The notes: generated by a model from the letters alone, not told the origin. A DNA stretch of 50,617 nucleotides from an uncultured archaeon (GCA_903828655.1 CAIKMX010000023.1:1-50617); one strand, 5' to 3'; shown: positions 1 through 49,115, numbered from the stretch's first letter. Program-made: numbers and translations.

Positions 1-75
1 AAACACCAATTTCAAAGGAAAGTTGAACTTTAAGAAAACCTTGGTTGTCTTAAGTTTCTAAAAAGAAAAGAGTGA
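1..75 (+). repeat. Repeat module A (AAACACCAATT...TTCTAAAAAGAAAAGAGTGA) with a module F copy (16..54) nested in its left hairpin arm. It ends at the stop codon of 76..642.
   Basis: Flanks match module A at 18947..18996, 36164..36216 and (reverse) 48914..48967. The inner 39 nt matches F copies at 2863..2901 and 23786..23824. Confidence 0.75.
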
Positions 76-642
76 TTACATCCCCTCAATAAGCTTCGCG
101 TCATTAAACTTTCCTAAAGATTTGTAAATCTCAAGAAGCTTTTCCTTAACCTGTCTCTTCTCAAGCTCATCAAGGTTCATCTTTATTAGATGCTCATAAA
201 ATCTCATAGCATTTCCCCTCTTTCCCTTCCTTTCCAAATCTTGTGCAGCAAGCATATAGATATTCTTTCTTGCAAGTTTAACATTAGCTCTCTGAGGATC
301 ACTTGCTTCCCTCATTGCACGAACAAACATTTGCTCACTCTCATCAATTCTTCCAACTTTTGAATAAAGCTCAGCAGCCTTAAGATAGCTCTCAATTTTA
401 TCCTTATAAGTTATGTCAATCCCTGCACCATTCTCATAAGCCTTTGCAGCCTTATCCCACAACTTTTGTTCCTCATATAGCTCTCCAAGTGTCCTCCATA
501 AAAATCTCTTCACTTCGAATGTAAACGCCTTGTATCCCAGTGCACTCTCTAGATAAGAAATCTTGTTTAAAGGAGTGAGCATCGCTCTAAGTTTCTCTTT
601 TATCTCACCTACAGTAGTCTCTCTAACTTGTATCACCATCAC
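76..642 (-). CDS. TPR-like helical repeat protein (hypothetical)
   Basis: 188-aa ORF with repeated A/Y/L-rich helix pairs (WDKAAKAYE, AAELYSKVGRIDESEQMF, AMRFYEHLI). TTAAATA (minus sense of 661..667) lies about 20 nt upstream of the ATG. Confidence 0.55.
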   Translation of the reverse strand: MMVIQVRETTVGEIKEKLRAMLTPLNKISYLESALGYKAFTFEVKRFLWRTLGELYEEQKLWDKAAKAYENGAGIDITYKDKIESYLKAAELYSKVGRIDESEQMFVRAMREASDPQRANVKLARKNIYMLAAQDLERKGKRGNAMRFYEHLIKMNLDELEKRQVKEKLLEIYKSLGKFNDAKLIEGM

Positions 643-698
643 CTAGAAACTTTTAGTGGTTATTTAAGGATTTATGTTCTGCAGAACAACTATCTAGA

Positions 699-759
699 AG
701 GAAGGTGAAGCCAGTCATGTGACCGAAGTCTTGCATTATAAAAACCTTGGTTTCCTGGG
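699..759 (+). repeat. Repeat module F, extended variant (AGGAAGGTGAAG..GTGACCGAAGTC..AAAACCTTGGTTTCC)
   Basis: Same head and tail as other F copies. It also carries the same about 24-nt internal insert as 2191..2252, containing a GAC-CGAA-GTC mini-hairpin. Confidence 0.7.
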
Positions 760-830
760 CAAAGGATTTATGTGGTGAAATGCTATGGAGAAATATAAAA
801 ATGAAACAGAAAATAAGTTACCAACACGTT

Positions 831-899
831 AAGAACCACAAACATTCATAAAAAGTCAGATAAGAGCGAGGTGTCTTGACGAAGTCAGACATCGAGCGA
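831..899 (+). repeat. Repeat modules B + C. The C hairpin at 865..899 ends 4 nt from the stop of the RelE pseudogene.
   Basis: AAGAACCACAAACATTCATAAAAA, then AGCGAG-GTGTCT-T-GAC-GAA-GTC-AGACAT-CGAGCGA. Confidence 0.8.
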
Positions 900-1176: not shown

Positions 1177-1413
1177 CTATTTGTACCTCTTCTCAAAATC
1201 TGAGAAGCCACCAATATTGATAAATTTTCCCTTTCTTATAGAATCTAATCTTTGCAAATATTCCGCTCTTACTTTTGGCTTTTCTTCAATCTGTGCTTTT
1301 ATAAAAATATCAACCTGCTTGCTCATGCTCATACCATTCTGCTTGCAAAAATCAGAGAACTTCCTATAAGTTTCTTCTTCTATATTAAACGTTTTTAATA
1401 CCATAAATAACAT
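1177..1413 (-). CDS. Ribbon-helix-helix (CopG/RelB-like) antitoxin
   Basis: 78 aa. The N-terminal strand-helix-helix pattern KTFNIEEETYRKFSDFCKQNGMSMSKQVDIFIK lies directly upstream of the RelE-like frame. The true start may be the ATG at 1404. Confidence 0.6.
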   Translation of the reverse strand: MLFMVLKTFNIEEETYRKFSDFCKQNGMSMSKQVDIFIKAQIEEKPKVRAEYLQRLDSIRKGKFINIGGFSDFEKRYK

Positions 1414-1466
1414 TAAATAACATTATTTAAATAGTTTTCGGATGAAAAAGTCCTAGAGCGTAGATA

Positions 1467-1530
1467 GTTTGGTAATGTTCCAATCCGTTGACATACTTGT
1501 CCATTCAGTTTTAAGACCCGGCAACTTAAA
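1467..1530 (+). repeat. Repeat module D (GTTTGGTAATG..CAATCCGTTGACATACTTG..TTTTAAGAC..GGCAACTTAA)
   Basis: Core CAATCCGTTGACATACTTG is shared with 31590.., 32486.. and 49086... Confidence 0.8.
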
Positions 1531-1572
1531 ATGTTTTGAATAAAAAAAGCATTTTACATATAAAGAATTAAA

Positions 1573-1656
1573 CCCTACAAAGATGTTAAAATTTTAGCAC
1601 ATTCATAAAAATCGTCCATGCGAGCGCGAGAGCGACAGAGGAGCGGAGCGCGAGCA
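1573..1656 (+). repeat. Repeat modules B + C-prime (GCGAG-rich variant)
   Basis: GATGTTAAAATTTTAGCACATTCATAAAAA matches 22722.. and 23722... It is followed by GCGAGCGCGAGAGCGACAGAGGAGCGGAGCGCGAGCA, as at 23762../23829... Confidence 0.75.
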
Positions 1657-1712: not shown

Positions 1713-2114
1713 ATGCCCTATAAACCAACCCCCACAAGAGGAGAACAACTAGAAGACAATGGATTACAATTATTTCTTCAAACGGGTTTAGGCGAACTAG
1801 AACCGGGTAACCGCCCAAGAGAAGCCCTTCAAAAAATGGCTGAAGAACTAGAGAGATACGGTACCCAAAACCCAAGAAATTATGCATTTAAAGTTTTTAA
1901 CACATACCATTCTTTCTGTCATCTAAGAGGATTCGCAGAAAGACTAGGACAACCAAGACTGCAAAAAGTAGCAGAAGCATACAGAAGATTAGCTTCCGGA
2001 AAAAAATTAAACCCTGACTTAAGGAGAGTTAGAGAATTTGTTAAAGGACTTAGTAATTATATTGCTAACGGTTCTTGTTTTTCCGATGATTCTAGAAGAA
2101 AAGCAGTAGCGTAA
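1713..2114 (+). CDS. Hypothetical protein (Arg-rich orphan)
   Basis: 133-aa ORF between two repeat blocks. No recognisable motif. It was chosen over the overlapping minus ORF 1657..1887 because it is longer. Confidence 0.45.
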   Translation: MPYKPTPTRGEQLEDNGLQLFLQTGLGELEPGNRPREALQKMAEELERYGTQNPRNYAFKVFNTYHSFCHLRGFAERLGQPRLQKVAEAYRRLASGKKLNPDLRRVREFVKGLSNYIANGSCFSDDSRRKAVA

Positions 2115-2160
2115 AAAAATATTCTAAAAAGTCTTAACAAAAAAGTTGAACAAGTCGTTA

Positions 2161-2340
2161 AAGAATTAGCACATTCACAAACCATCTTAAAGGAAAGTTG
2201 AACCGGTGATTTTGACCGAGGTCTTGCTTTCTAAAACCTTGGTTTTCTTAGGAAAGCGAGCATCGTGACGAATGTCCGATGCGAGCGAAAATCGTTTAGT
2301 AACACTACAATTAGTTCACAATTCAACAGCTCCAAAATTA
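2161..2340 (+). repeat. Composite repeat B - F(extended, 2191..2252) - C (2255..2288) - D (2294..2340)
   Basis: AGCACATTCACAAACC; AGGAAAGTTGAAC..AAAACCTTGGTTTTCTTAGG; AGCGAG-CATCG-T-GAC-GAAT-GTC-CGATG-CGAGCGA; GTTTAGTAACAC. Confidence 0.8.
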
Positions 2341-2358
2341 ATCAAGCAAATACAGCAT

Positions 2359-2820
2359 CTACCTAGACTTTTTTTCTTGGATATATAATGCAACTTCTGC
2401 ATCAGACCCAGAATCCTTAATATTAGCCCGAATATAAGGATCAAAAGGTTGTGGAACAATTACCCAAGGATGACTGCCCCTAACCTTAACCTCTAATCGA
2501 CGCCCTCCATCTCCTTCAAAGATATAAGCACGCCTTCCCGGTTCAAGAGATTCCTTATCTGAATCTTCCCCTGCGATATGTGAAGCAGAAACTTTATACT
2601 TCCCATTACCTAACGCAAAACCAAAATCCCTGCAAGAACGACGAACTACTAAATTCGCTTGAATTTCTTGAGTGATTGGAACACGAGTAGAAGAGACCAT
2701 ACTACCCAGTCGATTCAATTCTCCCGCAATCTGTCCTAAGAGCGAATAATCATTCGTAGTATCCATACTTTCCGCAGTATTATTCAATTTATAAACTTTA
2801 TCCCAGAATTTCGTCACCAA
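2359..2820 (-). CDS. Hypothetical protein
   Basis: 153-aa ORF with no recognisable motif. It occupies the position downstream of tuf where many archaea encode S10, but it is not S10-like. Confidence 0.45.
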   Translation of the reverse strand: MVTKFWDKVYKLNNTAESMDTTNDYSLLGQIAGELNRLGSMVSSTRVPITQEIQANLVVRRSCRDFGFALGNGKYKVSASHIAGEDSDKESLEPGRRAYIFEGDGGRRLEVKVRGSHPWVIVPQPFDPYIRANIKDSGSDAEVALYIQEKKSR

Positions 2821-2862
2821 CCAGAAACAAAGTTCCCACTAATCATTCATTCCTACATTAAC

Positions 2863-2901
2863 AGGAGAGTTGACCTTCAAGAGAACCTTGGTTCTCTTAA
2901 G
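2863..2901 (+). repeat. Repeat module F (AGGAGAGTTGACCTTCAAGAGAACCTTGGTTCTCTTAAG)
   Basis: Contains a perfect AAGAGAACC/GGTTCTCTT inverted repeat. It aligns with 16..54 and 23786..23824. Confidence 0.8.
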
Positions 2902-2945
2902 AAAGAGATAGGATATAAATAAAAAAATATCCAAAATAAAAAAAA

Positions 2946-4241
2946 TTACTTAGTAATAAGCTTTTTCTCTACGAGAGACTTGCAAACGCCTGCAGCTACT
3001 GTAACACCAGCATCTCTAATAGCAAATCTTGACATGTTTGGATTGTCCACTGCGGTTTCCAAAACAAGATTTCCTATAGGCTTGATTCTTACAATCGCTA
3101 CATCTCCATTCTTCAAAAAGTCTGGATTTTGCTGAGCAACCTGTCCTGTAGCTGGATCTAGTCTTGCTTGTAGTTCTATGAACTGGCAAGGCACCTGAGC
3201 TGTATGTACATGAAATACCGGAGTATAGCCCTTAGCAATAACAGTTGGGTGATTGATTACTGCAATTTGTGCTGTAAACTCTTCAACTATCTTCGCTGGC
3301 TTTGTTGCATCGCAGATTACATCACCACGAGCAACGTCCTTCTTTCCAATACCTCGTAAGTTGATTCCAACATTGTCTCCAGCTTCAGCTTCTGATAATT
3401 GTTCGTGATGAGCTTCGATACTTCGAACTTCACCCTCAATTCCAGTTCCGCTTCTTCCGGGTAATACAATAACCTTCTGTCCAACTTTCATGGTACCAGT
3501 CTCAATTTTTCCAACAGGAACAGTTCCAATTCCAGTGATTTCATATACATCCTGGATTGGCATACGCAAAGGTAAGTTTGTTGGCTTAGATGGTGCAGGA
3601 AATTTATCTATCTGTTCGAAAACAGTAGGTCCCTTATACCAAGCCATATGCTCAGATCGTTTCTTAACGTTATCGCCTTTCAAAGCTGATGCTGCAACGA
3701 ATTCTGTAGTGTCAGGTTTATAACCTGCTTGCTTCAAAACTGCTGAAACATCTTCCTTGACTTTCTTATACTTAGCTTCATCATAGCCAACAACGTCCAT
3801 CTTGTTGACGATTACTGCCAAGTTTTTTACACCCATAGTTCTTAACAACCATACGTGTTCTTTTGTCTGTGGCTGGACTCCGCCATCAGCTGCGACAACT
3901 AAAAAAGCTGCATCTGCCTGTGAAGCACCTGTAATCATGTTCTTAACGAAGTCTTTGTGACCTGGAGCATCGATTATAGTAACTTCAAAGTTAGGTGTCA
4001 TGATTTTCTTGTAGGAAAGATTGATTGTAACTCCTCTCTCTCTTTCTTCCTTAAGATTATCCATGACGTAAGCAAACTCAAAACCAGCCTTATTGTGCTT
4101 TGCTGCCTCTTCCCTGTGTTTTGTCATTTCCTGTTCAGACACCATACCACTATCGTAGAAAAGTCTACCTATCATAGTAGATTTTCCATGGTCTACGTGC
4201 CCTACGAAAACGACATTCATTATTGGTTTTTGTTTCGCCAT
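2946..4241 (-). CDS. tuf: Translation elongation factor EF-1 alpha
   Basis: GHVDHGKST, DAPGH and NKMD GTPase motifs over the full length. The start is placed at ATG 4241 (MAKQKPIMNVVFVGHVDHGKST) because the track start at 4274 is TTG. Confidence 0.95.
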   Translation of the reverse strand: MAKQKPIMNVVFVGHVDHGKSTMIGRLFYDSGMVSEQEMTKHREEAAKHNKAGFEFAYVMDNLKEERERGVTINLSYKKIMTPNFEVTIIDAPGHKDFVKNMITGASQADAAFLVVAADGGVQPQTKEHVWLLRTMGVKNLAVIVNKMDVVGYDEAKYKKVKEDVSAVLKQAGYKPDTTEFVAASALKGDNVKKRSEHMAWYKGPTVFEQIDKFPAPSKPTNLPLRMPIQDVYEITGIGTVPVGKIETGTMKVGQKVIVLPGRSGTGIEGEVRSIEAHHEQLSEAEAGDNVGINLRGIGKKDVARGDVICDATKPAKIVEEFTAQIAVINHPTVIAKGYTPVFHVHTAQVPCQFIELQARLDPATGQVAQQNPDFLKNGDVAIVRIKPIGNLVLETAVDNPNMSRFAIRDAGVTVAAGVCKSLVEKKLITK

Positions 4242-8737: not shown

Positions 8738-8844
8738 TTTAATATTTTTTTAGTAATTTTAACTTTATTTCCCGATGATTAATGTTGACTTTAATCATTT
8801 TTAAATGTTCGTAAATAACAACCAAAACTTTTGAGTTGCCAATA

Positions 8845-8910
8845 CGATTCCTCCACAAGAGATACCAAACCAGTTAGGTATCCTCTCATCCGTTGACATA
8901 ATTAATAGCA
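8845..8910 (+). repeat. Repeat modules E (CGATTCCTCCACAAGAGATACCAAACCA) + D, inside the rpoA-L30e spacer
   Basis: E recurs at 36043..36071 and 42714..42740. The D core is TCATCCGTTGACATAA. Confidence 0.8.
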
Positions 8911-8951
8911 TAGTTTATTTTAATAGCAAATAGATTTATACAAAAAAACGT

Positions 8952-11900
8952 TTACTTCTTCTCCTTTTTAACTTCAGCTTTTTTAACCTTAACAACAAGT
9001 TTTCCAGATTTATCTTTCTGATCTGCCAAAGGTCCAGTAACTTTTACTAACAATCCTGGCAATCCTGTTCCAACTGGAACGGGTTGATTTAATATTATAT
9101 TTTCTATAACACTCGCCAACTTATCTTTCTTACCTGTTCTTGTAGCATTTACAAAATGTTTAACTGGAGTCTCAAATGATGCTCTAGCCAAAACCGAACT
9201 CTTGTCAGATATAATCCCCATTCTTGTTATACCCTTAACAATTCCTGAAGTGGTCATTGTATCTGCAACAAGCATTAAATGTCTTATGTTAATATCAGAA
9301 CCTTGTGAAGAAATAACTTTCTTTATCTCTTCAATTATCGCCTGTCTTGCAGCCTCAACTCCTAAAACGGAAGAAATCTCATGTAAGTCATTTGTGAATA
9401 CCTTATCAGGATTAACTCCCTTGAAATTTAATATATCCTTTAAGTTTGAACCTGCAGTTAAAACAACATAATCTCTTTCTTTCTTAACAACTAAAACTTG
9501 AGAGATTCCTTTAACTCCCGATAAAATAACTTCCTTTATCTTTTCCTTTGTTTTGTATATCTCTTTGTAAGTTTCATTTGCAGAATCAACAGAAATTCCG
9601 TCGCTCTTCTTCTTCACATTGAATCCTTTGTCTTTCAAAACTTCAATAACCGTATCTAAATTGATATGAACTCTCTTCAAAGCCTCATCATCAATAGCAA
9701 TATTAATTCTTTTATTTGTAAAATCAATAGCAATTTCAGACATAATATTCTTCAACTTTACTTCCTTTATCTTTTCAGCAATAACTCTTGAGTCCTTTTC
9801 ATTGTTTGACTTACCTTCCAAATAAATCTCCATACTTGGAGTTGAAGGAGTCTTTCTAGCATCGAGAATTTCAATAATTCTTGGAAGACCTTGTGTAACC
9901 TGCATCTCAGCGACTCCTGCGGAGTGGAATACGTTCAGTACCATTTGTGTTGAAGATTCTCCAAATGATTGTGCAGTAACAACTCCAATTGCCTCTCCAG
10001 AAGCAATCTTCTGTCCCTTATGCTCATTTGTAACATCAACACCATCAACACCATAAACAAACTGGACAACATCATTTGAAGCGTCTCTTACAGTTCCATC
10101 ATAAGCAATAATCAGGTCCTGTAATGCATTAGCCAATCTTCTGTATAAATAACCTGATTTAGGTGTTCTCAAAGCAGTATCCATAAGTCCATCTCTTCCT
10201 GTTATCGCTCCAAAGAAAAATTCTTCAGGTCTCAATCCCTTCAAGAATGAATTATAGATAAATCCCTTAGATATTGGAGATAGATCGCCTTTCTTGAATG
10301 TAGATAATGTTCTTCCAGTATAACCAAAATCAATTCTTCTTCCATTAAGTACCTGCTGCCCTACGGAACAAGCAATCTGTGTAATATTCATCATACTTCC
10401 TCTAGATCCAGAACTAATCATCTTATTAACCGGATTATCTTTTGGAAATTCTTTCTTAACTGCCTCACCAATCTTTGTTCTAACTTCATTTAAAGATTGT
10501 AAAATTCTAATTTCTCTGGTCTCTTCCATTGTCTTTCCAGGAAGCTGCTCAAGTGTTCCGTCATAAAATTCTTCAATAAACTTTTGTGTTTTCTTTTCTG
10601 CCTCTTCTATAATAGTTTCTGTCATTTGTTTAACATGTTTAGGTACGTCTAAATCAGAAACTGAAATTGTAAATCCTGTTCTGGATAAGAAAGTTACACC
10701 AAGAGTATAAACTGTTTTTAAAACATCAATTGTAGTTCGTCTGTCATATTCTTTATCTATCTTCTTTATCATCTCTCCCTCTTCAACACCGAAAGTTTTT
10801 GCGCCTAAAGAAGCAAATTTCATTGACTGCATTTCTTTAGGTAACGCTTTAGCCCAAACATCCTTTCCAGAATTTTCCTTATTCAATGAAACATGCATAA
10901 CTCCAGCCTCATGTAAAAGTTGTATCGCATCTGCTTTGCTCAATTCGCTTTCACCAAGAACAAAATTTCCGGTAATAGCATCGTCGTTACATCCAACAAG
11001 ATTCATATTATTCTTAGGAGAAAAGATATTTTGTTCTACGTTCAATAAAACTTCAGCTTCAGCTCTTGCTTCTTCAGTTTGAGGTCCGTGAATATTCATT
11101 TCATCTCCATCAAAATCCGCGTTGTAAGGATTACAAACAGAAGGATGCATTCTAAATGTCCTATAAGGTAAAACTTTAACATAATGTGCCATTAATGATG
11201 CACGATGCAAGGAAGGATGTCTGTTGAACAAAACAATATCTCCATCAACAAGATGTCTCTCAACAATATACCCTGTGTCTATCTCTTCAGAAAGTTCACT
11301 TCTCAAATCAGCGGTAATTCTTTTTCTCTTCCCATCAGGTCTTATAATATAATTTGCAGCAGGATATTCTTCTTTCAAGATAATCTTTTTCAATCTTTCT
11401 TTATTTAACGTAGTAACCTTTTCAGCAACGGTAAGTATCTTTGCAATCTCAAATGGAATACCTACTTCATTTATCTTTAAGTTTGGATCTGGAGAAATAA
11501 CCGTTCTCGCAGAGAAATTAACTCTCTTACCGGCCAAATTCTTTCTTATTCTTCCTTCCTTACCCTTAATTCTTTCAGCGATAGTCTTTAATGGCTGTCC
11601 ACTTCTATGTCTTGCTGGAGGAATTCTAGCGATAGAGTTATCAAAGAAAGTTGTAACGTGATATTGCAATAAATCCCACAAGTCTTCAATAATAACTTCT
11701 GGTGCACCCGCATTCAAATTTTCCCATAATCTCTGATTCGCCCTAATAATATCAGACAACTTATGAGTTAAATCGTCCTCACTTCTCTCTCCTGTTTCAA
11801 GAGTAATACTAGGACGCACCGTTACTGGAGGAACAATAAGCAAAGTTAAAATTGCCCATTCCGGTCTTAAAGTTTTTCCATTAATTCCTAAAAGTTTCAA

Positions 11901-32911: not shown

Positions 32912-33058
32912 GACTTAGCCAAAAACATTAAAACCCCTCACATTCGAAAAAAGTCTGGGAAGCGAAGCGCCGTGACGAAGTCCGGCGCGGAGCGGTAGTA
33001 AGTAATACCCCCCTGCTTTCACATCATTGGCAACTTAAATTAAAGGTATTGGCAACAC
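32912..33058 (+). repeat. Composite repeat B - C (32961..32995) - D
   Basis: GACTTAGCCAAAAACATTAAAACCCCTCACATTCGAAAAAA; AGCGAA-GCGCCG-T-GAC-GAA-GTC-CGGCGC-GGAGCGG; ..CATCATTGGCAACTTAAATTAAAGGTATTGGCAAC. Confidence 0.8.
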
Positions 33059-33109
33059 ATCACCAGCTTTTCAATAAACTTTTAAACCGACTAAAATAAG
33101 AAATATGAA

Positions 33110-33181
33110 GGCTGCATAGCTCAGTGGTAGAGCGCCTGTCTCATAAGCAGGAGGTCCCGAGCTCAATTCTCGGTGCAGCCA
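33110..33181 (+). tRNA. tRNA-Met (anticodon CAU; elongator or Ile2-type), with atypical T-loop CTCAATT
   Basis: GGCTGCA-TA-GCTC-AGTGGTA-GAGC-G-CCTGT-CTCATAA-GCAGG-AGGTC-CCGAG-CTCAATT-CTCGG-TGCAGCC-A. Confidence 0.85.
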
Positions 33182-33831: not shown

Positions 33832-33904
33832 ACTAAATAAAATACCCTTAAGTATAAATACTTTGCGCTCATAAACATCGAAGACAAAAAGTTAAAAATC
33901 ATAA

Positions 33905-34053
33905 GGCAGAGGTCGGGAGCGAGCTTTTAGGTCTGGACAAAAGTTCAGTGCAAGATTCTCACAGACCTAAATGCGAGTCGGCACCGAGCAATTCGCTTTG
34001 AGCGACTAGAGAATTAAGATAATCGCGAAATGCAAATTGCGAGACCCAGAGCC
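33905..34053 (+). other. G+C-enriched, helix-rich about 150-nt segment. Candidate structured RNA or an expanded module C derivative.
   Basis: Closing pairs GGC..GGTC (33905..33914) with GACC..GCC (34043..34053). There is a perfect 10-bp stem TTTAGGTCTG (33926..33935) / CAGACCTAAA (33962..33971). AGCGAG and CGAG motifs flank the stem. Confidence 0.3.
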
Positions 34054-34103
34054 ATTTAGCATACCGAAGATATAATTATAAACCTCAAAACTCAATAATC
34101 TGT

Positions 34104-35963: not shown

Positions 35964-36042
35964 TAAGCATATTTAAAGATTATTGTACCCAAGAATACAA
36001 ATCAAAACCCTCATTAAAAATTAAAAAAATACTCCTACCAGT

Positions 36043-36216
36043 GCGATTCCTCCACAAGAGATACCAAACCATTATCGCTCGCCCTTCGGGCTCGCTTCTC
36101 AGTATCGTCTCACTCCCTTAACATCTTTGTCCATTCAGAATTTAAAGCATTGGCAACACTAACTTAGTTTCTTTCTTGAAACACCAATTCTTTCTTTTCT
36201 AAAGAAAGAAGAGTGA
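36043..36216 (+). repeat. Composite repeat E - C(minimal, reverse orientation, 36075..36096) - D - A, ending at the stop codon of 36217..37083
   Basis: GCGATTCCTCCACAAGAGATACCAAACCA; TCGCTCGCCCTTCGGGCTCGCT; ..CCTTAACATCTTTGTCCATTCAGAATTTAAAGCATTGGCAAC; CTTAGTTTCTTTCTTGAAACACCAATTCTTTCTTTTCTAAAGAAAGAAGAGTGA. Confidence 0.85.
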
Positions 36217-39479: not shown

Positions 39480-39598
39480 CGCCCATGACAGGATTTGAAC
39501 CTGCGACCCCTGACTTTCTTTGTTCTACGAACGAAGAACGAGCGAACTCGCTTCGCACTTAGAAGGCCAGTGCTCTATCCAGGCTGAGCTACACGGGC
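39480..39598 (-). tRNA. tRNA-Arg (anticodon UCU) with a 44-nt intron at the canonical 37/38 position
   Basis: Minus-strand read: GCCCGTG-TA-GCTC-AGCCTGGATA-GAGC-A-CTGGC-CTTCTAA-[GTGCGAAGCGAGTTCGCTCGTTCTTCGTTCGTAGAACAAAGAAA]-GTCAG-GGGTC-GCAGG-TTCAAAT-CCTGT-CATGGGC-G. Confidence 0.85.
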
Positions 39599-41551: not shown

Positions 41552-41622
41552 CAAGAACCCAAAACATTACCAAAAAAAGTTCCGTAAAGCGAAGCATTGT
41601 GACGAAGTCCAATGCGGAGCGA
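41552..41622 (+). repeat. Repeat modules B + C. C (41588..41622) ends 4 nt from the stop of 41626..42060.
   Basis: CAAGAACCCAAAACATTACCAAAAAAA, then AGCGAA-GCATTG-T-GAC-GAA-GTC-CAATGC-GGAGCGA. Confidence 0.85.
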
Positions 41623-42120: not shown

Positions 42121-42238
42121 CCAAGTATGCCAAAGAACCCCGGGTATTACCAAAAAGTTCCGTGAAGCGAGCATCGTGGCAAAGCCCGATGCGAGCGACA
42201 TTTAGTCTCTCCACTCTCCAAGATTTAAGCAACTTAGG
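42121..42238 (+). repeat. Composite repeat B - C (42166..42198) - D-like, with a further truncated B/C fragment at about 42290..42325
   Basis: CCAAAGAACCCCGGGTATTACCAAAAA; AGCGAG-CATCG-T-GGC-AAA-GCC-CGATG-CGAGCGA; ATTTAGTCTCTCC..AGATTTAAGCAACTTAGG. Confidence 0.8.
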
Positions 42239-42345
42239 TTTTATACATTTTAGGTTTTCGCACAAACAGAGTTCACACTAATATCATTAACACCAAGAAC
42301 CCGGTGCCGTAGCGAAAACCAAAACGACTAACGCTATTACTCTTA

Positions 42346-42588
42346 TTATTCTTTTACAGCTGAAGGGCTAATGAAGATTATTGTATCTCCACGCAAAAAA
42401 GTCAGGCCATAGCTTCTTGTCTGTTCTCCGTTTTCTACTTCCTTTGCGCTGTCTAATACCACATTAATGTGGATATCAAAAGCTAGCAAAGTTCCAACAA
42501 GTTGCTTACCGCTTTTCAACTGTACAAGAATCTCTTTACCCTTGGCTGAATTCAGCAAATCAAGTGGTCTTTCTATTCCATGTACCAT
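42346..42588 (-). CDS. Sm-like (LSm/SmAP) RNA-binding protein
   Basis: The Sm1/Sm2 pattern ILVQLKSGKQLVGTLLAFDIHINVVLDSAKEV......YGLTFLRGDTIIFISP. 80 aa. Confidence 0.88.
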   Translation of the reverse strand: MVHGIERPLDLLNSAKGKEILVQLKSGKQLVGTLLAFDIHINVVLDSAKEVENGEQTRSYGLTFLRGDTIIFISPSAVKE

Positions 42589-42713
42589 AAAGATAACTAA
42601 TAGAACTAGTTTTTAAACCTTCCTAAAAATAAAATTATCGACGGAGAAATAGACAAAAAGAAAAAACTTAAAATAAAAAACTTAGCCAAGGACAACAACT
42701 GCTCCTAAAACAA

Positions 42714-42800
42714 CGACTCCTCCACAAGAGATACCGAACAGTTTAGTAACAATCAAAGCGTTTACACACTTGGCAATTCAAATTTTAAGCATTGGCAGAT
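42714..42800 (+). repeat. Repeat modules E + D, ending about 12 nt from the stop of 42813..46235
   Basis: CGACTCCTCCACAAGAGATACCGAACA, then GTTTAGTAACAATCAAAGCGTTTACACACTTGGCAATTCAAATTTTAAGCATTGGCAG. Confidence 0.8.
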
Positions 42801-42812: not shown

Positions 42813-45800
42813 TCAATTAAATAACATCTTCGCTTTTCTCTGTATTTCCTGTTCAAGTGCAACCTTCTTAGCATCCAACTCAGCTTCCTTCTTCTTCATC
42901 TCAGTCTTAAGTTTATCCTTATACTCTTCTCTCAATTCCTCTTTAAGCTTAATCGCTCTCTCCCCCAACTCTCTTCTTATCTGCGCTTCCTTTTCAGCCT
43001 CAAGTTTTGCTCTCAAAGCAGTCTCTTTAAATCCTAACTCTTCAACTTTGTTATCAACTTCCTTTTTCTTTCTATCATAATCTTCCTTAAGTGAATTTTT
43101 CAAGAACAAATATGCCTCATTATGTTTCTGTTTCATCTTATCAAACTCTCCTTTTTCTTGAGCAACCGTTCCCTCTATCTCCTTTTCTTTTTCCTTCAAA
43201 ACCTTTTTTAATTTTTCTTGTTCTTCCAACATCTTTTGAACTCTTCTCTTTAGAAGCATTTCTTTAAAACCCAAACTCTTTTTCTTTTCCAAAATCTTCA
43301 TCATAGACATCCTCTCACGAGCGTCCTCTCTTCTTTCTCTCATCTTAACCGCCCGAATCATTTCCCTCTCCACGGCTTTTTTATGCGCCTGCTCTCTCAT
43401 CTTTCTAATCTCCGCACTCTTCATCATTGCCTGCTCCTTTTCAGCGAGCTTCTTTTTGAGATGCTCTTCTCCCTCAGCGAGCTTCTTTTTGAACGTTTTT
43501 TCTTCTTCAGCAATTTTTTTATTCAATGCTTCGTGTTCCTCCGCAGATTTTTTTCTAATTTCCTCTCTTCTCTTCTCAAGTTCATTAATCTTCTTTTGAA
43601 CCTCTTCATGCAATGCCTTTTTCCTGCCTAAAACAACCTTATCCATCTTATCCCCTTTCTTCCTTGCCTCTTCCTCTGCTTCTTTCTTTATATTTTGAGC
43701 TTCATCTATCTCCTTAGCAACTTTGCTATTGAGTTCTTTTTCTTTTTCTCTCAAATCAGTTTTTAACTTTTCTTGATCATCTAACATCTTCTTTACTTTC
43801 TTTTTAAGAAGATTTTCTTTAAGAATCAAATTTTTCTTTTGTTCTATGATTTTTCTCATAGAAGTCCTTTCATGAACCTCTTCATGTTTCTTCATCGCAA
43901 CAAAATCCCTCATCATCTCCTTTTCTCTTACCGAAAGATCTTTTCTAAGCCCCTCTTCTCTTTCTGCAAAACTCTCCCTCAAGGCTTCCTCTTTCTCTGC
44001 AAGACTCTTTCTAAACTCTCTTTCTTCCTCGGCCAACTTTATACTCAATGCTTCGTGTTCCTCCGCAGATTTTTTCCTTGCCTCCAATTTTTCTTTCTGA
44101 AGCTCTTCTACTTTTCTTTTAACCTGTTCTTCAAGTTCATTAATCCTATGAGAAATAACCTTCTGCGCTTCCCTTTCAGCTCCCGCCTTCACTCTTCTAG
44201 CATCTTCAATCTCAAGAGCCATCCTTCTCTCAAGTTCAATCTCTTTCTCTTTAGAAGCCCTTTTTAGTCTAGCCTGCTCCTCTAATATTTTTTTAACTCT
44301 TCTCTTTAGAAGCATTTCTTTCAGACCCAAATTTTTTTTCTTTTCCAAAATCTTCATCATAGACATCTTCTTAAGAATATGCTCTTTTTTCTTCTCTATT
44401 TCAAGAGCTTTCATCATTTTCTGTTCTTTTCTTGCAAGATCTTCTTTGGCTATTCTTTCTTCCTTAGAAAGTTTCTCCATAAATGCTTTTTCTTTTTCTT
44501 TAGAATCCTTTTCCTGGGATGAAAGACCCTTCTTCATCTCAATTTGTTTCTTTAAAAATTCGGCCCTTATCTTACTCTCTTCATTTGAAAGACCCTCTCT
44601 CATCTTCTTCTCTTCTTCAGATTTTTTCCTTTCAAGCTCTTTTTCTTCTTCCAAAAGTTTTTTCTTAAATTCTTTCTCCTCTACGGCAAGCTTTCTCTCA
44701 AGAATCTCATGCTCGGAAGCAAACTTTTTCTTTGCCTCTTCCTTCTCATTCTCTATACGAGCTTTTGTTTTCTTAATCCTTTCTTCAAGTTCTTTTTCCT
44801 TATGGGAAGAAATCTTCCTTGCCTCCTCCTCCGCCTGTTTCTTTATCCTCTCGGCTCTCTCTTTCACACTAACAATATGCATCTCAAGCTCTTTTTCTTT
44901 TTCCTTTAAAGCTTTCTTTAATTTTTTCTGCGCATCCTCACGTAGTTTAATAGAATCAGAATTTTTCCTAACTTCATTCTCTTTCTCCATAATCTTCTTT
45001 CTCAAGATTTCTTCTTTTTCAAACAACTCTCTTCTAAACCCTCTTTCTTCTTCAGCTAACTTCTTATTCAACGCGTTATGCTCCGCAGCAGATTTTTTTC
45101 TCACTTCCAATTTCTCCTTTTCAAGCTCAGAAAGCCTCTTTTGAATCTGTTCCTCGATTTCTCTTTTTTTCTGAAGAACTATCTCATTAAGTCTCTCATT
45201 TTTCTTTCTCGAGTTCTCTTCAGCTTCCCTTTTTACTTTATGAGCCTCCCGTATCTCCCTATCAACTTGCTCATTAAGTTGCTTCTCTCGATTATAATGA
45301 AGTTTATTTAATCTTGCAACTTCCAAGGCAATCTCCTTCTCAAATCTCTCATGTAACTCATTCTTATGCAACAAGGATTCTTCATCAAACTTCTGCCTTA
45401 ATTTCTTTCTTTCATCAGTCAATTCTTGGACCATTCTCTTTTTCAAAGCAACTTTTGCATCCTCAAACTCTTTTTCTGCACGATGTCTAAGAATTGTTGT
45501 CTCTTCCTTTGTAAGCTTAACCTTTTGATCTTTCAATGCTTTATCCAATAAACTCTTAAATCTCCTCTCAACATCTTTCTTCAAAGTAGTTTCAACTCTA
45601 TTTTCATAATCCTCATGATACTTCTGTTCTAATGCACGATATTTTTCATTAAAGATTTTTTCATTAGAGATTAAATCTTCATGCAACTGCTTCTGAATCA
45701 TAGACTCTTTATTTTTTATTTTATCAGATAATGCAATCTTTATGTCATTTAATGACATATCAAAAGCTTCATTAGTAAGCAAATTAACTGAAGGATCTAT

Positions 45801-46235
45801 TCTCTTAAGGATTTCCTTCTTTCTCTCCTCCTCCCCCTTATGAGCCTCTAATTCCCTATGAAGCTTATTTAATTCCGAATGCAACAAATCCATTTCCTTC
45901 TCATAAGCTTTATTTTTAACGCTAACATGTTTTTTATTCTCAATCTCTTCTTTTAATGCCCTTATTTTCTTATCTACTTCAAGTTTAACATTAACAGTTT
46001 TCCTATGTTTTGGTTTATATCTTCCAGAAATTTTAGCTTTTAGAATTTTAAGCTCTCTCTCAATAATAGGAATATCAGAAACACTCTTTAATCTCGAACG
46101 AATCACTGACGCCTCAGCTTCATGCCCTCTAACGTTCAGCCCATTCAACTCTACCTTTAATTCCTCAAGTCTCTGAACGCCCTTACTAAAGATTTCAAAG
46201 TCCTTCCTCAAACTAGATTCAGCAGTTTTCACCAT
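42813..46235 (-). CDS. 1140-aa Glu/Lys-rich coiled-coil protein with 3-4 long internal tandem repeats
   Basis: No TM segment or NTPase motif is seen. Repeated blocks include KKSAEEHEALNKK[LI]AEEE..F.K.L.E.EE (four copies) and MSMMKILEKKK.LG.KEMLLKRRV.K.LEEQ (three copies). Confidence 0.8.
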   Translation of the reverse strand: MVKTAESSLRKDFEIFSKGVQRLEELKVELNGLNVRGHEAEASVIRSRLKSVSDIPIIERELKILKAKISGRYKPKHRKTVNVKLEVDKKIRALKEEIENKKHVSVKNKAYEKEMDLLHSELNKLHRELEAHKGEEERKKEILKRIDPSVNLLTNEAFDMSLNDIKIALSDKIKNKESMIQKQLHEDLISNEKIFNEKYRALEQKYHEDYENRVETTLKKDVERRFKSLLDKALKDQKVKLTKEETTILRHRAEKEFEDAKVALKKRMVQELTDERKKLRQKFDEESLLHKNELHERFEKEIALEVARLNKLHYNREKQLNEQVDREIREAHKVKREAEENSRKKNERLNEIVLQKKREIEEQIQKRLSELEKEKLEVRKKSAAEHNALNKKLAEEERGFRRELFEKEEILRKKIMEKENEVRKNSDSIKLREDAQKKLKKALKEKEKELEMHIVSVKERAERIKKQAEEEARKISSHKEKELEERIKKTKARIENEKEEAKKKFASEHEILERKLAVEEKEFKKKLLEEEKELERKKSEEEKKMREGLSNEESKIRAEFLKKQIEMKKGLSSQEKDSKEKEKAFMEKLSKEERIAKEDLARKEQKMMKALEIEKKKEHILKKMSMMKILEKKKNLGLKEMLLKRRVKKILEEQARLKRASKEKEIELERRMALEIEDARRVKAGAEREAQKVISHRINELEEQVKRKVEELQKEKLEARKKSAEEHEALSIKLAEEEREFRKSLAEKEEALRESFAEREEGLRKDLSVREKEMMRDFVAMKKHEEVHERTSMRKIIEQKKNLILKENLLKKKVKKMLDDQEKLKTDLREKEKELNSKVAKEIDEAQNIKKEAEEEARKKGDKMDKVVLGRKKALHEEVQKKINELEKRREEIRKKSAEEHEALNKKIAEEEKTFKKKLAEGEEHLKKKLAEKEQAMMKSAEIRKMREQAHKKAVEREMIRAVKMRERREDARERMSMMKILEKKKSLGFKEMLLKRRVQKMLEEQEKLKKVLKEKEKEIEGTVAQEKGEFDKMKQKHNEAYLFLKNSLKEDYDRKKKEVDNKVEELGFKETALRAKLEAEKEAQIRRELGERAIKLKEELREEYKDKLKTEMKKKEAELDAKKVALEQEIQRKAKMLFN

Positions 46236-46290
46236 CTTTTATTTATCACTATTAACAAGTATTTTTATTTTATAAATCTTCTCAATATCC

Positions 46291-47520
46291 TCAATTCTTC
46301 AGCACACTAGTATCATATCCCTTTTTCTTCCACATATTAATCTGCCTTCTAATATCTCCTACATCAGGTATCTTTGTCTCTCCCTGCAAGACCGAAGTAT
46401 TATAACCCTCATTCTTCCATTTTTCAATTTGAGACTTCATTGTATCAACAGGCTTCTTCGCCTTCTTCATCTGTTTATATTTTTTGACTCTCTCAACATG
46501 AAGTTTTTTTATCGCCTTCACTCTTTCCTTCTTAACTTTAGCAAATATCTTCTTGCTTACCTTCTTCTCTTCAGGAGTTTTAAGCTTAACCTCTACAGTA
46601 TGTTCCTTCTCATGGATATAATCAACCTGCCTTCTCAATTCATTTCTATATTGATTCTTTAGTTCATCGAGTAACTTATCTCTTGAAAAAACCGAATAGA
46701 AAACAAATAATAACAGAACTAAAACCAAGGCTGCGAATATTAGCAAAACAAAAAAGTACATATTATCAAAAGCCCCCGCAAATAAAGGCTTCTTTTCAAC
46801 GCTAAAAAATGAACTAGATGTTCCAGTAGAATTATTATATCTTACAATGGCCCCAAATACATAATCCTGTTGCTTTGCACCTTTAGGGATCTCAAAAGAC
46901 TTTGTAAATGAAGTGTCTTTATCAACCGGAACAGTCTCTTTTTCAGAAAAGATTTTTCCACCATAAAAGTCTCTCACAAAATATTCAAACTCAACAACTG
47001 CCGAGCCTAAAAAAGTTAAATCATTTACTTTTATTTCAGCATTAACCCTCTCACCAGGCTGAACAACTCCCGAAGGAAATAAAGATACACTATTATCAAA
47101 TAAAACCTTATCAGACTCAATCTCTAAAATTATAGGAAGAGTTTTCTTTTCATCTCCAGATGAAACTTCTAAAACCCCCACATAAATTCCCTCACTAACA
47201 CTCAAATTAACAAAAGAAACCTTTATCGCCTTAGTTTCGTAGGCCGATAAAACAAGCTCTTGTGTTATCGGTTCAGTTAAGCCCTGAACGTCAGAAAGAA
47301 ACATATTCACCTTATTCTCAGAATCTTTCAAATTCGTCACTCTAACGTCAGTTTCATAACTGCCACCAATTTTTATGTTAGACTTTATCAAAATAGAATC
47401 AACATCAAAATTTGGAGAATTTTTTGGACTAAAGTAAGAATAACTCCCCCAACCCGCAAGACCTAAAAAAACTAAAACTAAAACAATAATAACAATTTTC
47501 TTAGTTTTACTAATTGCCAT
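46291..47520 (-). CDS. Bitopic membrane protein: N-terminal anchor, two beta-rich ectodomains, TM segment, Lys-rich cytoplasmic tail with a duplicated WK..GY.TSVL motif
   Basis: The ATG at 47520 overlaps the upstream stop (ATGA). TM segments are IVIIVLVLVFLGLAGW and MYFFVLLIFAALVLVLLLFVFYSVF. The ectodomain is paralogous to that of 47520..48854. Confidence 0.7.
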   Translation of the reverse strand: MAISKTKKIVIIVLVLVFLGLAGWGSYSYFSPKNSPNFDVDSILIKSNIKIGGSYETDVRVTNLKDSENKVNMFLSDVQGLTEPITQELVLSAYETKAIKVSFVNLSVSEGIYVGVLEVSSGDEKKTLPIILEIESDKVLFDNSVSLFPSGVVQPGERVNAEIKVNDLTFLGSAVVEFEYFVRDFYGGKIFSEKETVPVDKDTSFTKSFEIPKGAKQQDYVFGAIVRYNNSTGTSSSFFSVEKKPLFAGAFDNMYFFVLLIFAALVLVLLLFVFYSVFSRDKLLDELKNQYRNELRRQVDYIHEKEHTVEVKLKTPEEKKVSKKIFAKVKKERVKAIKKLHVERVKKYKQMKKAKKPVDTMKSQIEKWKNEGYNTSVLQGETKIPDVGDIRRQINMWKKKGYDTSVLKN

Positions 47521-48854
47521 CAAGCTCTCCTTAAAATAATTTTCTTCTTCTTTCCAATTCTAATAATAAAATAAACTATAAGTCCCATAACTACCACGCT
47601 AGCCACAATAAGACTTATTAATATAGTCTTAAAACTTATAGGGATATTCTCCGCTATCTCAAAATGAGAACTAGACGTGGCCACGCCATTAGGATAAACT
47701 AATTCCAAACCAAGAATATAGTTTCCTGTAGGCAAATCCTTAGTATAAAATTGTTTCTTAAAACTCTTCTGTTGATCTACCAAAACGGTCTCACTCTCCT
47801 TCAAATAAACCTTCCCATTATAGTCTTTTACAATGTAATTTAAGGTAACGTCAACTCGAGGATTATCTCCCATAGGGATAAGAGTAACTTGAGCATTTAC
47901 CTTACTATTCGGTTTTATCTGCTTGCTAGAGTCAGGAATAACAATCATCGCATCAAATAGTAACTTCTGTGATTTAACATTCACCGCAAGAAGAATTTCC
48001 TTTCCACCAATGTTCAACTTTCCAGTAAGAATCTCTGCTTTATCTCCCCCAGAAATGAATATCTTCAAGTCTTTACTCTCTCCAGGTTTCAAAACAAAAG
48101 ATTTATCCGCAAACACAACCTTCTCACCAAAATCCCCCGAAGAAGTTTCAATCTTTGCATCAGCAGTTCCAGTGTTTGTAACTCTTATAACTTTCTCCCT
48201 TATAGAACTAACAACCATATCAAGAGTTATCTCATTAGTATCAAGCTCCAAACCTGTTATAACAGGAATAACAACCGTGGGTGCGCCGCCACCGCCTCCG
48301 CCGCCACCGCCACCGGCACCGCCAACGACTTTACAGTCGGCAGAACAAGTTGCCGTAGTCTCGCCCCCATTACAAGTTCCATCACCGCAATAAGTTCCAC
48401 CACCACAAGTTCCACAATCTGTAACACAAGTTGAACAATTCTCCACCCCGTTACAACTACGGTCTCCACAATAAGTGTAATCAATAGAATACGAAAGCCC
48501 AGCATTATCAATAAACGTCGCATAAGTCAAATTCAACGCGCCATCATGGGTTACCGTAAACAAAGTCCCAGAACCACTTACTCCAGTTTTAGAAGAGTCA
48601 AGTTTAGATTCATAAACATAAAAGATAGTATTTTTTGTGTTGGTTCCAGAAGAAGTTGTTCCACCTAAAAAGGTTCCAAAGCTCGCGCTCGCACTCCCCG
48701 TATAATCAAATTGGACTTCATATGCATAAAGGTTTTCAGCTCCACTAACCGAAGTAACTCCCGCATCAGAAACGCTAACACTAGGACTTGCAGAAACAAA
48801 ACTAGCTAAAAATACTAATACAAAAACGCCAACAAACACCCTCTTTTCTAACAT
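47520..48854 (-). CDS. Secreted/anchored surface protein: signal peptide, cohesin-like domain, CGDxxCNG Cys-rich repeats, poly-Gly linker, two beta-sandwich domains, C-terminal TM anchor
   Basis: MLEKRVFVGVFVLVFLASFVSASPS; CGDRSCNGVENCSTCVTDCGTCGGGTYCGDGTCNGGETTATCSADC; GGAGGGGGGGGGGAP; C-terminal ILISLIVASVVVMGLIVYFII-RIGKKKK. The start is placed at ATG 48854 because the track start is TTG. Confidence 0.7.
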   Translation of the reverse strand: MLEKRVFVGVFVLVFLASFVSASPSVSVSDAGVTSVSGAENLYAYEVQFDYTGSASASFGTFLGGTTSSGTNTKNTIFYVYESKLDSSKTGVSGSGTLFTVTHDGALNLTYATFIDNAGLSYSIDYTYCGDRSCNGVENCSTCVTDCGTCGGGTYCGDGTCNGGETTATCSADCKVVGGAGGGGGGGGGGAPTVVIPVITGLELDTNEITLDMVVSSIREKVIRVTNTGTADAKIETSSGDFGEKVVFADKSFVLKPGESKDLKIFISGGDKAEILTGKLNIGGKEILLAVNVKSQKLLFDAMIVIPDSSKQIKPNSKVNAQVTLIPMGDNPRVDVTLNYIVKDYNGKVYLKESETVLVDQQKSFKKQFYTKDLPTGNYILGLELVYPNGVATSSSHFEIAENIPISFKTILISLIVASVVVMGLIVYFIIRIGKKKKIILRRA

Positions 48855-48913
48855 AAAAAACAAAGTAATTCAAACTATTTAAATCTTAACATCGAACAAT
48901 ACCGACGAGAAAA

Positions 48914-49115
48914 TCACTCTTTTCTTTTTAGAAAAAAGAAAATTGGTGTTTCAAAAGAAAAACTAAGATAGCAAAACAAAAAACATTGCCAAGCCACCAA
49001 AGAACCAGACATATTACCAAAAATTTAGGCAAGAGCGAGCATTGTGACGAATGTCCGATTTCGAGCGACAGTTTGGTATCCTCTCAATCCGTTGACATAC
49101 TTGGCAACTCAAATA
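48914..49115 (+). repeat. Composite repeat A (reverse orientation) - B - C (49034..49068) - D
   Basis: TCACTCTTTTCTTTTTAGAAAAAAGAAAATTGGTGTTTC; AACATTGCCAAGCCACCAAAGAACCAGACATATTACCAAAAA; AGCGAG-CATTG-T-GAC-GAAT-GTC-CGATT-T-CGAGCGA; GTTTGGTATCCTCTCAATCCGTTGACATACTTGGCAAC. Confidence 0.85.

Follow-up and report, generated by a model that had tools for sequence, protein, structure and literature searches.

The intergenic spacers of a 50,617-nucleotide (nt) stretch of archaeal DNA (GCA_903828655.1, CAIKMX010000023.1:1-50617; GC content about 36%), here called the window, contain a genuine, dense and co-oriented mosaic of short repeat modules, designated A to F. These modules are probably lineage-specific, non-autonomous repeat elements, centred on hairpins, that have been copied repeatedly into AT-rich gene boundaries. 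Insertion polymorphism relative to close relatives was observed, together with signs of structural selection on the hairpin module C, a common orientation of the copies, a lack of terminal inverted repeats and short duplications of variable length. About half of the larger spacers in this Pacearchaeota-like genome are occupied by recently gained modular repeats. The genomes of DPANN archaea are generally seen as extremely streamlined, and descriptions of mobile or repetitive DNA in them are, to our knowledge, scarce.

Repeat modules in the intergenic spacers

The modules had been proposed in an initial annotation of the window, and a repeat search recovered the D, F, C, E, B and A families at the same positions (Table 1). 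Profiles built from the copies and searched with nhmmer returned 9 copies of D, 9 of C, 3 of E, 5–6 of F, 4–5 of B and 3 of A in the window. A covariance model of C found nine strong copies on the + strand (25–64 bits) and one weak copy on the - strand at 36072-36100. The gene map was revised from mechanical open reading frame (ORF) calls before spacers were counted. Strong module matches (E < 1e-3) were present in 16 of the 27 spacers longer than 80 nt, in agreement with the figure of at least 16 large spacers given in the annotation, and weaker copies were found at 1-75 and 29790-29835. Hairpin C occurs at a density of about one per 5 kb.

An all-against-all BLAST comparison of the spacers gave 36 high-scoring segment pairs (HSPs) of at least 35 bits, 33 of them on the same strand. 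Dinucleotide-preserving shuffles of the spacers gave no HSPs in any of 20 replicates; the module alignments are thus better than those of composition-matched sequence. A pattern written for C matched the window five times against 0.00 expected. Sequence 99.9–100% identical to the window was present in independent assemblies from other samples. The module repeats fragment metagenome assemblies: short contigs of the same species from other samples end at module loci, and one of them stops exactly at 42165, where a C hairpin begins.

The proposed strand bias was also confirmed. All copies of B, D, E and F are on the + strand, as are nine of the ten C copies and three of the four A copies, the exceptions being C at 36072-36100 and A at 48914-48964. 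If orientation were random, some 18 independent loci would be very unlikely to point the same way. The cumulative GC skew of the window decreases monotonically from end to end, so that all module copies plausibly lie in one replichore. The bias had further been described as holding whatever the orientation of the flanking genes. It was indeed seen in divergent, convergent and tandem spacers, but few spacers are informative: a single tandem (+ +) spacer, 31562-31801, separates gene direction from chromosome direction, which leaves little statistical power for orientation independence.

Structure, order and nesting of the modules

Three modules, A, C and F, form hairpins. The stem of A consists of 10 A/T base pairs, with fold z-scores of -3.1 to -4.7 relative to shuffles, and F has an 8–9 bp stem with A-T to G-C exchanges between copies. 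In C, a 6 bp stem is followed by a single bulged T and a 3 bp GAC/GTC helix that is closed by a GAA loop; the 5' flank of the hairpin reads AGCGAR and the 3' flank SGAGCG. Modules B, D and E are AT-rich arms that showed no structure of their own when folds were compared with shuffles. They carry several TTGGYAA/TTRCCAA boxes, and 18 of the 30 occurrences of this box are in the 14% of the window that is intergenic. Module B as earlier defined comprises two subtypes, GATGTTAAAAnnTAGCACATTCA and ..TTGCCAAGCC..CATTACCAAAAA.

A preferred order B-C-D had been noted. B precedes C in every copy and D follows C in five of nine, but the order is really cyclic (D-linker-B-C-D and so on); D-linker-B-C was seen three times in the window and again in the related contig L124. 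Modules are also nested in one another. F lies inside A at 1-75 and inside a GC-rich variant of C (C2) at 23750-23840, a mini-hairpin (TGACCGAAGTC) lies inside two F copies, and C or its inverted form C' is located at E/D and B/D junctions.

Inverted complementarity between B and D, as pointed out in the annotation, was seen in certain copies, such as 48986/49101, and is not a conserved feature. The long B-C-D cruciform suggested there was not supported: RNAalifold retained only hairpin C, and even for the best B-C-D unit the fold was no stronger than in shuffles (z = 0.11). A coding potential on the - strand of E and D (E'/D'; a peptide ..FGISCGG with a hydrophobic tail, and an ATG in D') was likewise rejected. 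In the copy at 36043 the motif is immediately preceded by a stop codon and a start codon is missing; the ATG in D' is not conserved. CCTAGA or CTAG occurs near the left edge of several insertions, and its total counts were not enriched.

Empty sites in close relatives

Syntenic short contigs of two relatives were reached via homologues of two window proteins. The first relative, R1, comprises contigs L210 and L212 (sample ERZ27300140) and shows 76–88% protein identity; the second, R2, is contig L211, with 74%. These close relatives lack modules at the same sites, which argues for recent insertion in the lineage of the window. The spacer between orf337 and the S17e gene measures 34–35 nt in L210 and L211 (GGAACAATAA/TCTTTAAAAACC), whereas the window has 203 nt extra (31557-31759). 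To the right of the insertion the ancestral gene end AACAATAA is still present, while orf337 has acquired a new stop codon at the left junction, so that insertion can create a new gene end. Between orf104 and tRNA-Met, the window carries 182 nt extra (32886-33067) flanked by a direct duplication of TTTTCA, and the site is empty in L211.

The Alba-orf104 spacer is 0 nt in R2 (L211). It holds a D fragment followed by B-C-D in the window and B-C-D-A in R1 (L210), where the insertion (L210 3372-3648) is flanked by an 8 bp duplication, AGAAATAA. Between the PP-loop ATPase and thioredoxin-like genes, a window segment of 597 nt (23681-24277), which includes orf152 with a TATA box of its own, is absent in L212 (R1) and in L213, a TARA relative. 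On the 3' side of the PP-loop gene, R1 has E-C'-D compared with C' fragment-D-B-C in the window. The B-C unit of about 75 nt at this position (locus 22655-22791), which R1 lacks, abuts TTGTC, and TTGTC is present in the empty site.

No terminal inverted repeats were found at the ends of 31557-31759, 32886-33067 or L210 3372-3648. The direct duplications at the three junctions were AAC (3 bp, or 8 bp, AACAATAA, with divergence), TTTTCA (6 bp) and AGAAATAA (8 bp).

Spacer lengths were also compared with those of further relatives. The rpoA-L30e spacer, which holds E-D, measures 214 nt compared with a median of 1 nt in 32 relatives. The EF1a-TPR spacer (643-2945) measures 2303 nt and contains three small ORFs, each bounded by modules; the ten relatives in which it was measured range from 382 to 2,262 nt, with the median at 604 nt. 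One of the three ORFs is a ribbon-helix-helix (RHH) antitoxin-like gene with a decayed downstream ORF; the others, orf133 and orf153, have no family matches. An RHH-PIN pair at 49183-50076 adjoins another module cluster. For orf144, which is bounded by C and B-C, no homologue was found among 5.8 billion proteins, and orf152 has distant, unannotated homologues only. At least one accessory ORF (orf152) was gained together with modules, and several other small or ORFan ORFs adjoin module clusters.

Most related rpoA loci of at least 20 kb (21 of 25) are without spacer repeats. Contig L005 (4875-18914) has a co-oriented 95-nt element of its own in four copies, with TTGGTAA and TAGCAA boxes and a long hairpin. 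Contig L065 (5472-14064) has its own 37-nt AGCGA...GCGAG element, likewise co-oriented and present five times; three of these copies form a tandem array with a spacing of 33 nt. Both sets lie inside the conserved rpo-EF gene cluster of metagenome-assembled genomes (MAGs) of Pacearchaeota/Woesearchaeota. Such systems therefore seem to arise repeatedly in Pacearchaeota, and no description of Pacearchaeota spacer-repeat systems of this kind was found in the literature.

The empty sites bear on the possibility that the modules are cis-regulatory cassettes of the host. B would be promoter-like, A, C and F would be hairpins of 5'- or 3'-UTRs acting as terminators, RNA-stability elements or insulators, and D would carry protein-binding boxes; the cassettes would have been duplicated passively and kept for regulating the flanking genes. 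A and C often lie 2–8 nt from stop codons of - strand genes (18996/18999, 22791/22796, 41621/41626 and 23840/23849; likewise in L124). Some B copies have a TATA-like TTAAAA 24–26 nt before AGCG, the spacing of real leaderless promoters here, and structural selection on the C stem and the enrichment of TTGGYAA boxes in spacers would also be in keeping with regulation. Nevertheless, S17e, Alba, the PP-loop ATPase and tRNA-Met are expressed in the relatives from module-free spacers of 0–35 nt. Since the relatives run the same essential genes without modules, the latter are not ancestral regulatory DNA. Moreover, orientation is fixed on the chromosome and not to the genes, and copies lie between divergent genes, where no terminator is needed. 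The TATA-like box stands at the right distance upstream of only 3–4 of nine C copies, and B was rejected as a general promoter for C. No module hairpin scores as a hairpin followed by a T-run, terminator-like sites number 7 compared with 11 expected, and bacterial-type intrinsic terminators were not flagged at any module. A regulatory origin is thus considered rather unlikely.

Structural selection on hairpin C and its wider occurrence

Metagenomes were scanned for C with the pattern AGCG-N8-TGACGAAGTC-N8-AGCG, which gave at least 120 matches. Most of the matches listed were due to chance and lay in high-GC coding DNA, for example in reverse-transcriptase YADDFVI codons. About 12 low-GC (28–38%) contigs among the matches listed have perfect 6 bp stems that differ in sequence. 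They include archaeal contigs, namely L143 (archaeal small-subunit rRNA), L097 (archaeal/eukaryal-type uS10) and L202 (archaeal-type GluRS). In the last of these, the GluRS ORF (2111-3331, 406 amino acids) lies directly beside the C hairpin and matches the first ~390 positions of archaeal models of 560–567, so that it may be a split or truncated synthetase gene.

In an alignment of 18 C sequences, 97.5% of cells were paired and double changes were seen in seven of nine pairs; its metagenome members were picked partly for the stem, whereas the window copies were not so selected. The covariation score was reached by none of 500 shuffles, and no slid register came close. The C copies at Alba/orf104 in the window and in L210 have the rare GGCGRAGCC loop in common, and two compensatory double substitutions distinguish their stems. 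As judged from these alignments, C is under structural selection.

Module sets were found in the near relatives L124, L125, L210 and L212. Neither C nor any other module had a copy in the 1.28 Mb of rpoA regions from 80 related species, and a conserved regulatory RNA common to the family was rejected on that ground. On its sequence distribution, hairpin C is older than this lineage, though patchy. Module E together with the adjacent GTATTGGCAAC is identical at 36 of 36 positions between the window (8834-8869) and L125 (139-174), a contig that comes from another metagenome and has other genes beside the module. In L125, E has the opposite orientation relative to C, and it is far better conserved than the other modules.

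Rfam gave only tRNAs at gathering thresholds and nothing on the modules even at E <= 1; they thus match no already described RNA family. K-turn/K-loop, bulge-helix-bulge, hammerhead and group II intron domain V motifs were compared with C by eye, and its conserved positions fit none of them.

The same covariation could be expected if B-C were a small non-coding RNA gene, with a hairpin RNA starting at AGCGAG and transcribed from B. It would form a multi-copy family with variable stems, and the RNAs might act as antisense or guide RNAs against the genes into which they point. The strong stem covariation with invariant loop and flanks is consistent with such a gene, as is the presence of C in at least 12 other low-GC contigs among the matches listed, four of which have a TTTAT...TTAAYA box about 25 nt upstream. 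Most B-C units of the window point into the 3' end of a gene on the opposite strand. On the other side stand the lack of any Rfam family and of a TATA-like box at the right distance in most window copies. C occurs in either orientation beside D, with both C-D and C'-D junctions, and one G-U among 162 cells leaves the transcribed strand unmarked. B-C units are absent from orthologous sites in close relatives and hence dispensable. A DNA hairpin accounts for the data equally well, and a small RNA was judged improbable.

Attachment sites of the integron type were also considered. In that case the modules would be attC-like recombination sites and the small ORFans gene cassettes of a dispersed integron- or CALIN-like array, as reported for some DPANN MAGs. 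Archaeal integrons and CALINs, Nanoarchaeota included, have been described (PMC9668308) and are the nearest reported phenomenon. The module sites are co-oriented and structure-defined and have an extrahelical base. Module-flanked accessory or ORFan genes (orf152, orf144) are absent from the relatives, RHH78, orf133 and orf153 lie in the 2.3 kb module-rich EF1a-TPR insert, and a toxin–antitoxin pair adjoins a module cluster. Nevertheless, no RYYYAAC...GTTRRRY consensus was found around B-C-D: B ends with ..TTACCAAAAA and D starts with GTTTRGT, which match neither R'' (RYYYAAC) nor R' (GTTRRRY), while ACCAAAC/GTTAGGT occurs only at E/D junctions, 2 nt apart. The pairing of B with D is not conserved, and the modules are scattered among essential genes (rpoA, EF-1alpha, ribonucleotide reductase and S17e) without a cassette array. 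In addition, many insertions are without any ORF, short direct duplications are not a product of attC recombination, and no IntI-like gene is present in the window. Cassette sites of this kind are highly improbable.

Finally, the chance that the modules are a product of AT-rich spacers or an assembly artefact, for which no point speaks, is practically nil given the shuffles without comparable matches, the near-identical independent assemblies and the related module sets in other organisms.

Proposed mode of copying

The preferred explanation is thus repeated copying of hairpin-centred repeat elements into gene boundaries. The most likely mechanism, we infer, is strand-specific copying through single-stranded DNA at the replication fork. 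The mosaic would be built by two routes. One would be the insertion of whole units, among them the B-C unit (about 75 nt), the longer D-linker-B-C and B-C-D composites (about 180–200 nt) and modules accompanied by an accessory ORF; in the other, new hairpins may tend to land at the tips of existing hairpins. Copying might be the work of a structure-specific enzyme, HUH/RAYT-like or a recombinase, that acts in trans and has its gene elsewhere in the genome, or might result from hairpin-provoked template switching, with return to the departure point by microhomology. Template switching would explain the variable duplications of 3–8 bp, the arbitrary boundaries, the permuted order, the nesting at hairpin tips and the shared orientation. 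A structure-specific enzyme that works in trans on single-stranded DNA would also fit these features.

Several observations weigh against copied elements of this kind. No mobilising gene (transposase, RAYT or integrase) was detected in the 50.6 kb, one contig of the genome, by Pfam and NCBIfam searches of about 40 ORFs, and the window has no gene for a tyrosine recombinase, TnpA, TnpB or an IntI-like protein. Identity among copies is only 62–83%, so that no recent donor–recipient pair is seen. Because there are no defined termini and the order differs between insertions (D-B-C and B-C-D), a single cut-and-paste or copy-paste element with fixed ends is not demonstrated. The strand bias could reflect the 3:1 excess of genes on the - strand, which holds about three-quarters of the window coding sequence; only one (+ +) spacer argues otherwise. 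The loop and flanks of C are deeply conserved across lineages, which suggests some host or RNA-level function. In other lineages, where contigs are short, the orientation of C showed no pattern relative to GC skew or gene strand.

A further, tentative possibility is that C is the recognition element of an undescribed strand-specific copying system in several low-GC ultrasmall (DPANN-type) archaeal lineages. The system would recognise AGCGAR, the 6 bp stem, the bulged U/T, GAC-GAA-GUC and SGAGCG, and could be an archaeal counterpart of REP-RAYT or template switching at the fork. If so, promoter-like and hairpin modules, and at times accessory genes, would be spread by it through otherwise streamlined genomes, with every copy facing the same way with respect to replication.

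The points of note are the host group, the clean insertion evidence and a conserved hairpin that could lead to the copying machinery, C being a concrete probe toward the responsible enzyme. The family offers a tractable case for the study of DNA gain in small genomes and of the movement of strand-specific, structure-dependent archaeal elements.

Table 1. Module loci and revised gene calls in the window
Feature	Coordinates	Strand	Evidence
Split A (AAACACCAATT ... TTTCTAAAAAGAAAAGAGTGA); the tip of its hairpin holds a nested F (6-55)	1-75	+	nhmmer F match, inverted repeat, sequence
F*, a copy of F with inserted mini-hairpin TGACCGAAGTC	699-762	+	sequence, fold
B-like segment before C 865-898	821-862
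C (AGCGAG, 6-7 bp stem, bulged T, GAC-GAA-GTC, CGAGCG)	865-898	+	covariance model 48.6 bits, nhmmer
Ribbon-helix-helix protein gene	1177-1413	-	revised ORF call
D 1465-1526, linker, B 1577-1611, C2 1613-1656 (GCGAGCGCGAGAG...GGAGCGCGAGCA)	1465-1656	+	nhmmer, sequence
B 2150-2183, F* 2187-2253, C 2255-2287, D 2292-2350; between convergent genes	2150-2350	+	nhmmer; covariance model 32.2 bits
Solo F hairpin, downstream of the EF-1alpha gene	2853-2903	+	nhmmer 7e-16; fold
E 8836-8871, D 8871-8922; rpoA-L30e spacer	8836-8922	+	nhmmer
A hairpin with a stem of 10 bp, located 2 nt past the stop codon of the ribonucleotide reductase gene	18946-18996	+	nhmmer 8.8e-14; fold z = -4.69
D-like ~22655-22700, B 22716-22749, C 22758-22791	22655-22791	+	nhmmer, covariance model
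B 23717-23752, C2 split by nested F 23774-23824, accessory orf152 (-)	23681-24277		comparison with relatives
Solo D-like copy (TTTAGTAATG...CTTAACATCTTGGCAAC)	29790-29835	+	TTRGYAA boxes at 29794 and 29822; below nhmmer threshold for D
F-like segment in frame inside orf337	31203-31247	+	nhmmer 1.6e-8; alignment
D-linker-B-C, 203 nt, between orf337 and S17e	31557-31759	+	empty sites in relatives
S17e gene	31802-32005	+	revised ORF call
Alba gene	32027-32353	+	revised call; the overlapping - strand ORF (32140-32469) was rejected
D fragment, B, C 32435-32467, D 32469-32530; between convergent Alba and orf104 genes	32366-32533	+	nhmmer, covariance model
B-C-D, 182 nt, C at 32961-32994	32886-33067	+	empty site in L211
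E 36035-36070, inverted mini-C 36072-36100 (-), D 36099-36158, A 36166-36216	36035-36216	+	nhmmer, covariance model, fold
3' part of B, C 41588-41621; C ends 4 nt from the stop codon of ORFan orf144	41552-41621	+	covariance model 63.5 bits
B, C 42166-42197, degenerate D start	42121-42240	+	covariance model
Sm-like protein gene	42346-42588	-	revised ORF call
E 42705-42740, D 42739-42799	42705-42799	+	nhmmer
Inverted A 48914-48964 (-), B, C 49034-49067, D 49069-49127	48914-49127	+	inverted repeat, nhmmer, covariance model

Host and other features of the window

An archaeal source of the window, which is a complete contig, was borne out, the closest genomes being Pacearchaeota/Woesearchaeota ("Nanoarchaeota") MAGs with RpoA identities of at most 78%. 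Genes in the window include those for EF-1alpha, EF-2, S7, S12, RpoB, S17e, Alba and an Sm-like protein. Genes for a class II ribonucleotide reductase, NrdR, RFC subunits, a tRNA-splicing endonuclease and tRNase Z are also present.

The F-like segment of 45 nt inside orf337 is the sole module match within a gene, and its hairpin is lost. It lies within a lysine/glutamate-rich linker of a conserved hypothetical protein, and the orf337 orthologues in L210 and L211 have an unrelated, equally long sequence in its place.

RpoA is split into A' and A'' in most archaea. In the window it is a single ORF of 1156 amino acids with Rpb1 domains 1–5 (8952-12422, - strand), and rpoA in 80 related loci likewise matches as a single stretch. 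An ORF of 1140 amino acids at 42813-46235 (-) has no Pfam match; a repeat search found internal repeats of about 500–555 nt, and the product is probably a repetitive coiled-coil protein. A free-standing ORF with a LAGLIDADG domain (33163-33831, -) overlaps tRNA-Met (33110-33181) by 19 nt at its 3' end, an arrangement also present in L211.

Two tRNA genes were not called by ARAGORN. The first, at 29590-29705 (-), apparently has a non-canonical intron and gave a sub-threshold Rfam tRNA match (26.7 bits, 29597-29656); on visual inspection it resembles a tRNA-Gln(CUG) that carries an insertion around the D arm. The second is an intron-containing gene of 119 nt at 39480-39598 (-), with an Rfam score of 50.9 bits. 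Both of its ends were about 85–88% complementary to tRNA-Lys (16181-16255) in the repeat search, so that it is probably a second, intron-containing tRNA-Lys. A strongly structured and conserved intergenic region at 33885-34075 (-) has an RNA fold z-score of -3.46 on the - strand compared with -1.39 on the + strand. It aligns with L211 at about 75% identity, contains several GCGAG motifs and has no Rfam family match, and is a candidate for an unannotated non-coding RNA.

Comparison with known element families

BLAST searches of the modules against plasmid and phage collections gave no matches. A viral or plasmid origin was rejected: IMG/VR pattern matches for D and E were due to chance, inside coding regions, and the C and A patterns had none. 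The initial annotation had likened the modules to REP/BIME, Correia and Rickettsia palindromic elements. They do behave like repeats of the REP/BIME, BOX or miniature inverted-repeat transposable element (MITE) type, in that orthologous spacers are empty; membership of any named family did not follow.

Like attC/CALIN sites, the modules are co-oriented and structure-defined, with extrahelical bases, and form a lineage-specific family with ORFan and toxin–antitoxin neighbours. An attC site spans 57–141 nt and pairs L'' with L' boxes besides its R'' and R' cores, and its cassettes are mostly promoterless and stand in tandem. The modules differ in that R''/R' cores, a cassette array and an integrase are absent from the window, the sites lie among essential genes and many insertions carry no ORF. 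Rickettsia palindromic elements share the palindromic repeats and reduced genome, and one in-frame F-like copy (31203-31247) is found here. In contrast to that family, the in-frame copy is single and without a hairpin, nearly all copies are intergenic, and the sequence is apparently unrelated.

The modules resemble IS200/IS605-derived palindrome-associated elements (PATEs) in that the hairpin has an extrahelical T, terminal inverted repeats are lacking and a strong orientation bias is seen within what is plausibly one replichore. A PATE has subterminal hairpins at its two ends, inserts 3' of a fixed target of 4–5 nt with no duplication and is oriented by the direction of replication. Moreover, TTGTC lies directly beside the inserted hairpin at one empty site and abuts several copies. 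However, the modules have a single conserved hairpin type in place of separate hairpins for the left and right ends, duplications flank some of the insertions, and no TnpA/TnpB is present in the window. MITEs (Correia elements and those of Sulfolobus and haloarchaea) are likewise non-autonomous insertions of 100–200 nt with presence/absence polymorphism at orthologous sites; they lie at gene boundaries and may carry promoter-like sequences. The lack of terminal inverted repeats at the three defined insertions sets the modules apart from MITEs, and from Correia elements in particular, as do duplications of 3, 6 and 8 bp, which are not of a fixed length.

The REP/BIME of Enterobacteria and Pseudomonas are mobilised by RAYT, an IS200/IS605-like Y1 HUH transposase whose gene typically has REPs on its flanks, and the REPs within BIMEs alternate in orientation (inverted pairs, or REPINs). 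In the modules, by contrast, C is single and co-oriented (9 of 10), without inverted doublets and without a GTAG-type head, short direct duplications flank the insertions, and the host is archaeal. As inverted REP pairs are absent and no RAYT is encoded in the 50 kb, the modules are not shown to be REP/BIME. When compared by description, C nevertheless resembles a REP: both are imperfectly palindromic over about 35 nt, contain a bulge and have conserved bases at their flanks. Its 10 copies are all intergenic, the stem covaries, and the loop and AGCG flanks are fixed. As in REP/BIME, mosaics with other short motifs are formed at high density, terminal inverted repeats are lacking, and structure defines the units more than sequence does.

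BOX elements of Streptococcus pneumoniae (boxA-boxB-boxC) are apparently unrelated in sequence and have a bacterial host and defined ends, A and C, whereas the modules have a cyclic or permuted order and are nested in each other. The two share short, hairpin-forming modules in a preferred order with variable content, an intergenic location and a small genome. By analogy, then, the modules appear functionally comparable to REP/BIME or to the pneumococcal BOX.

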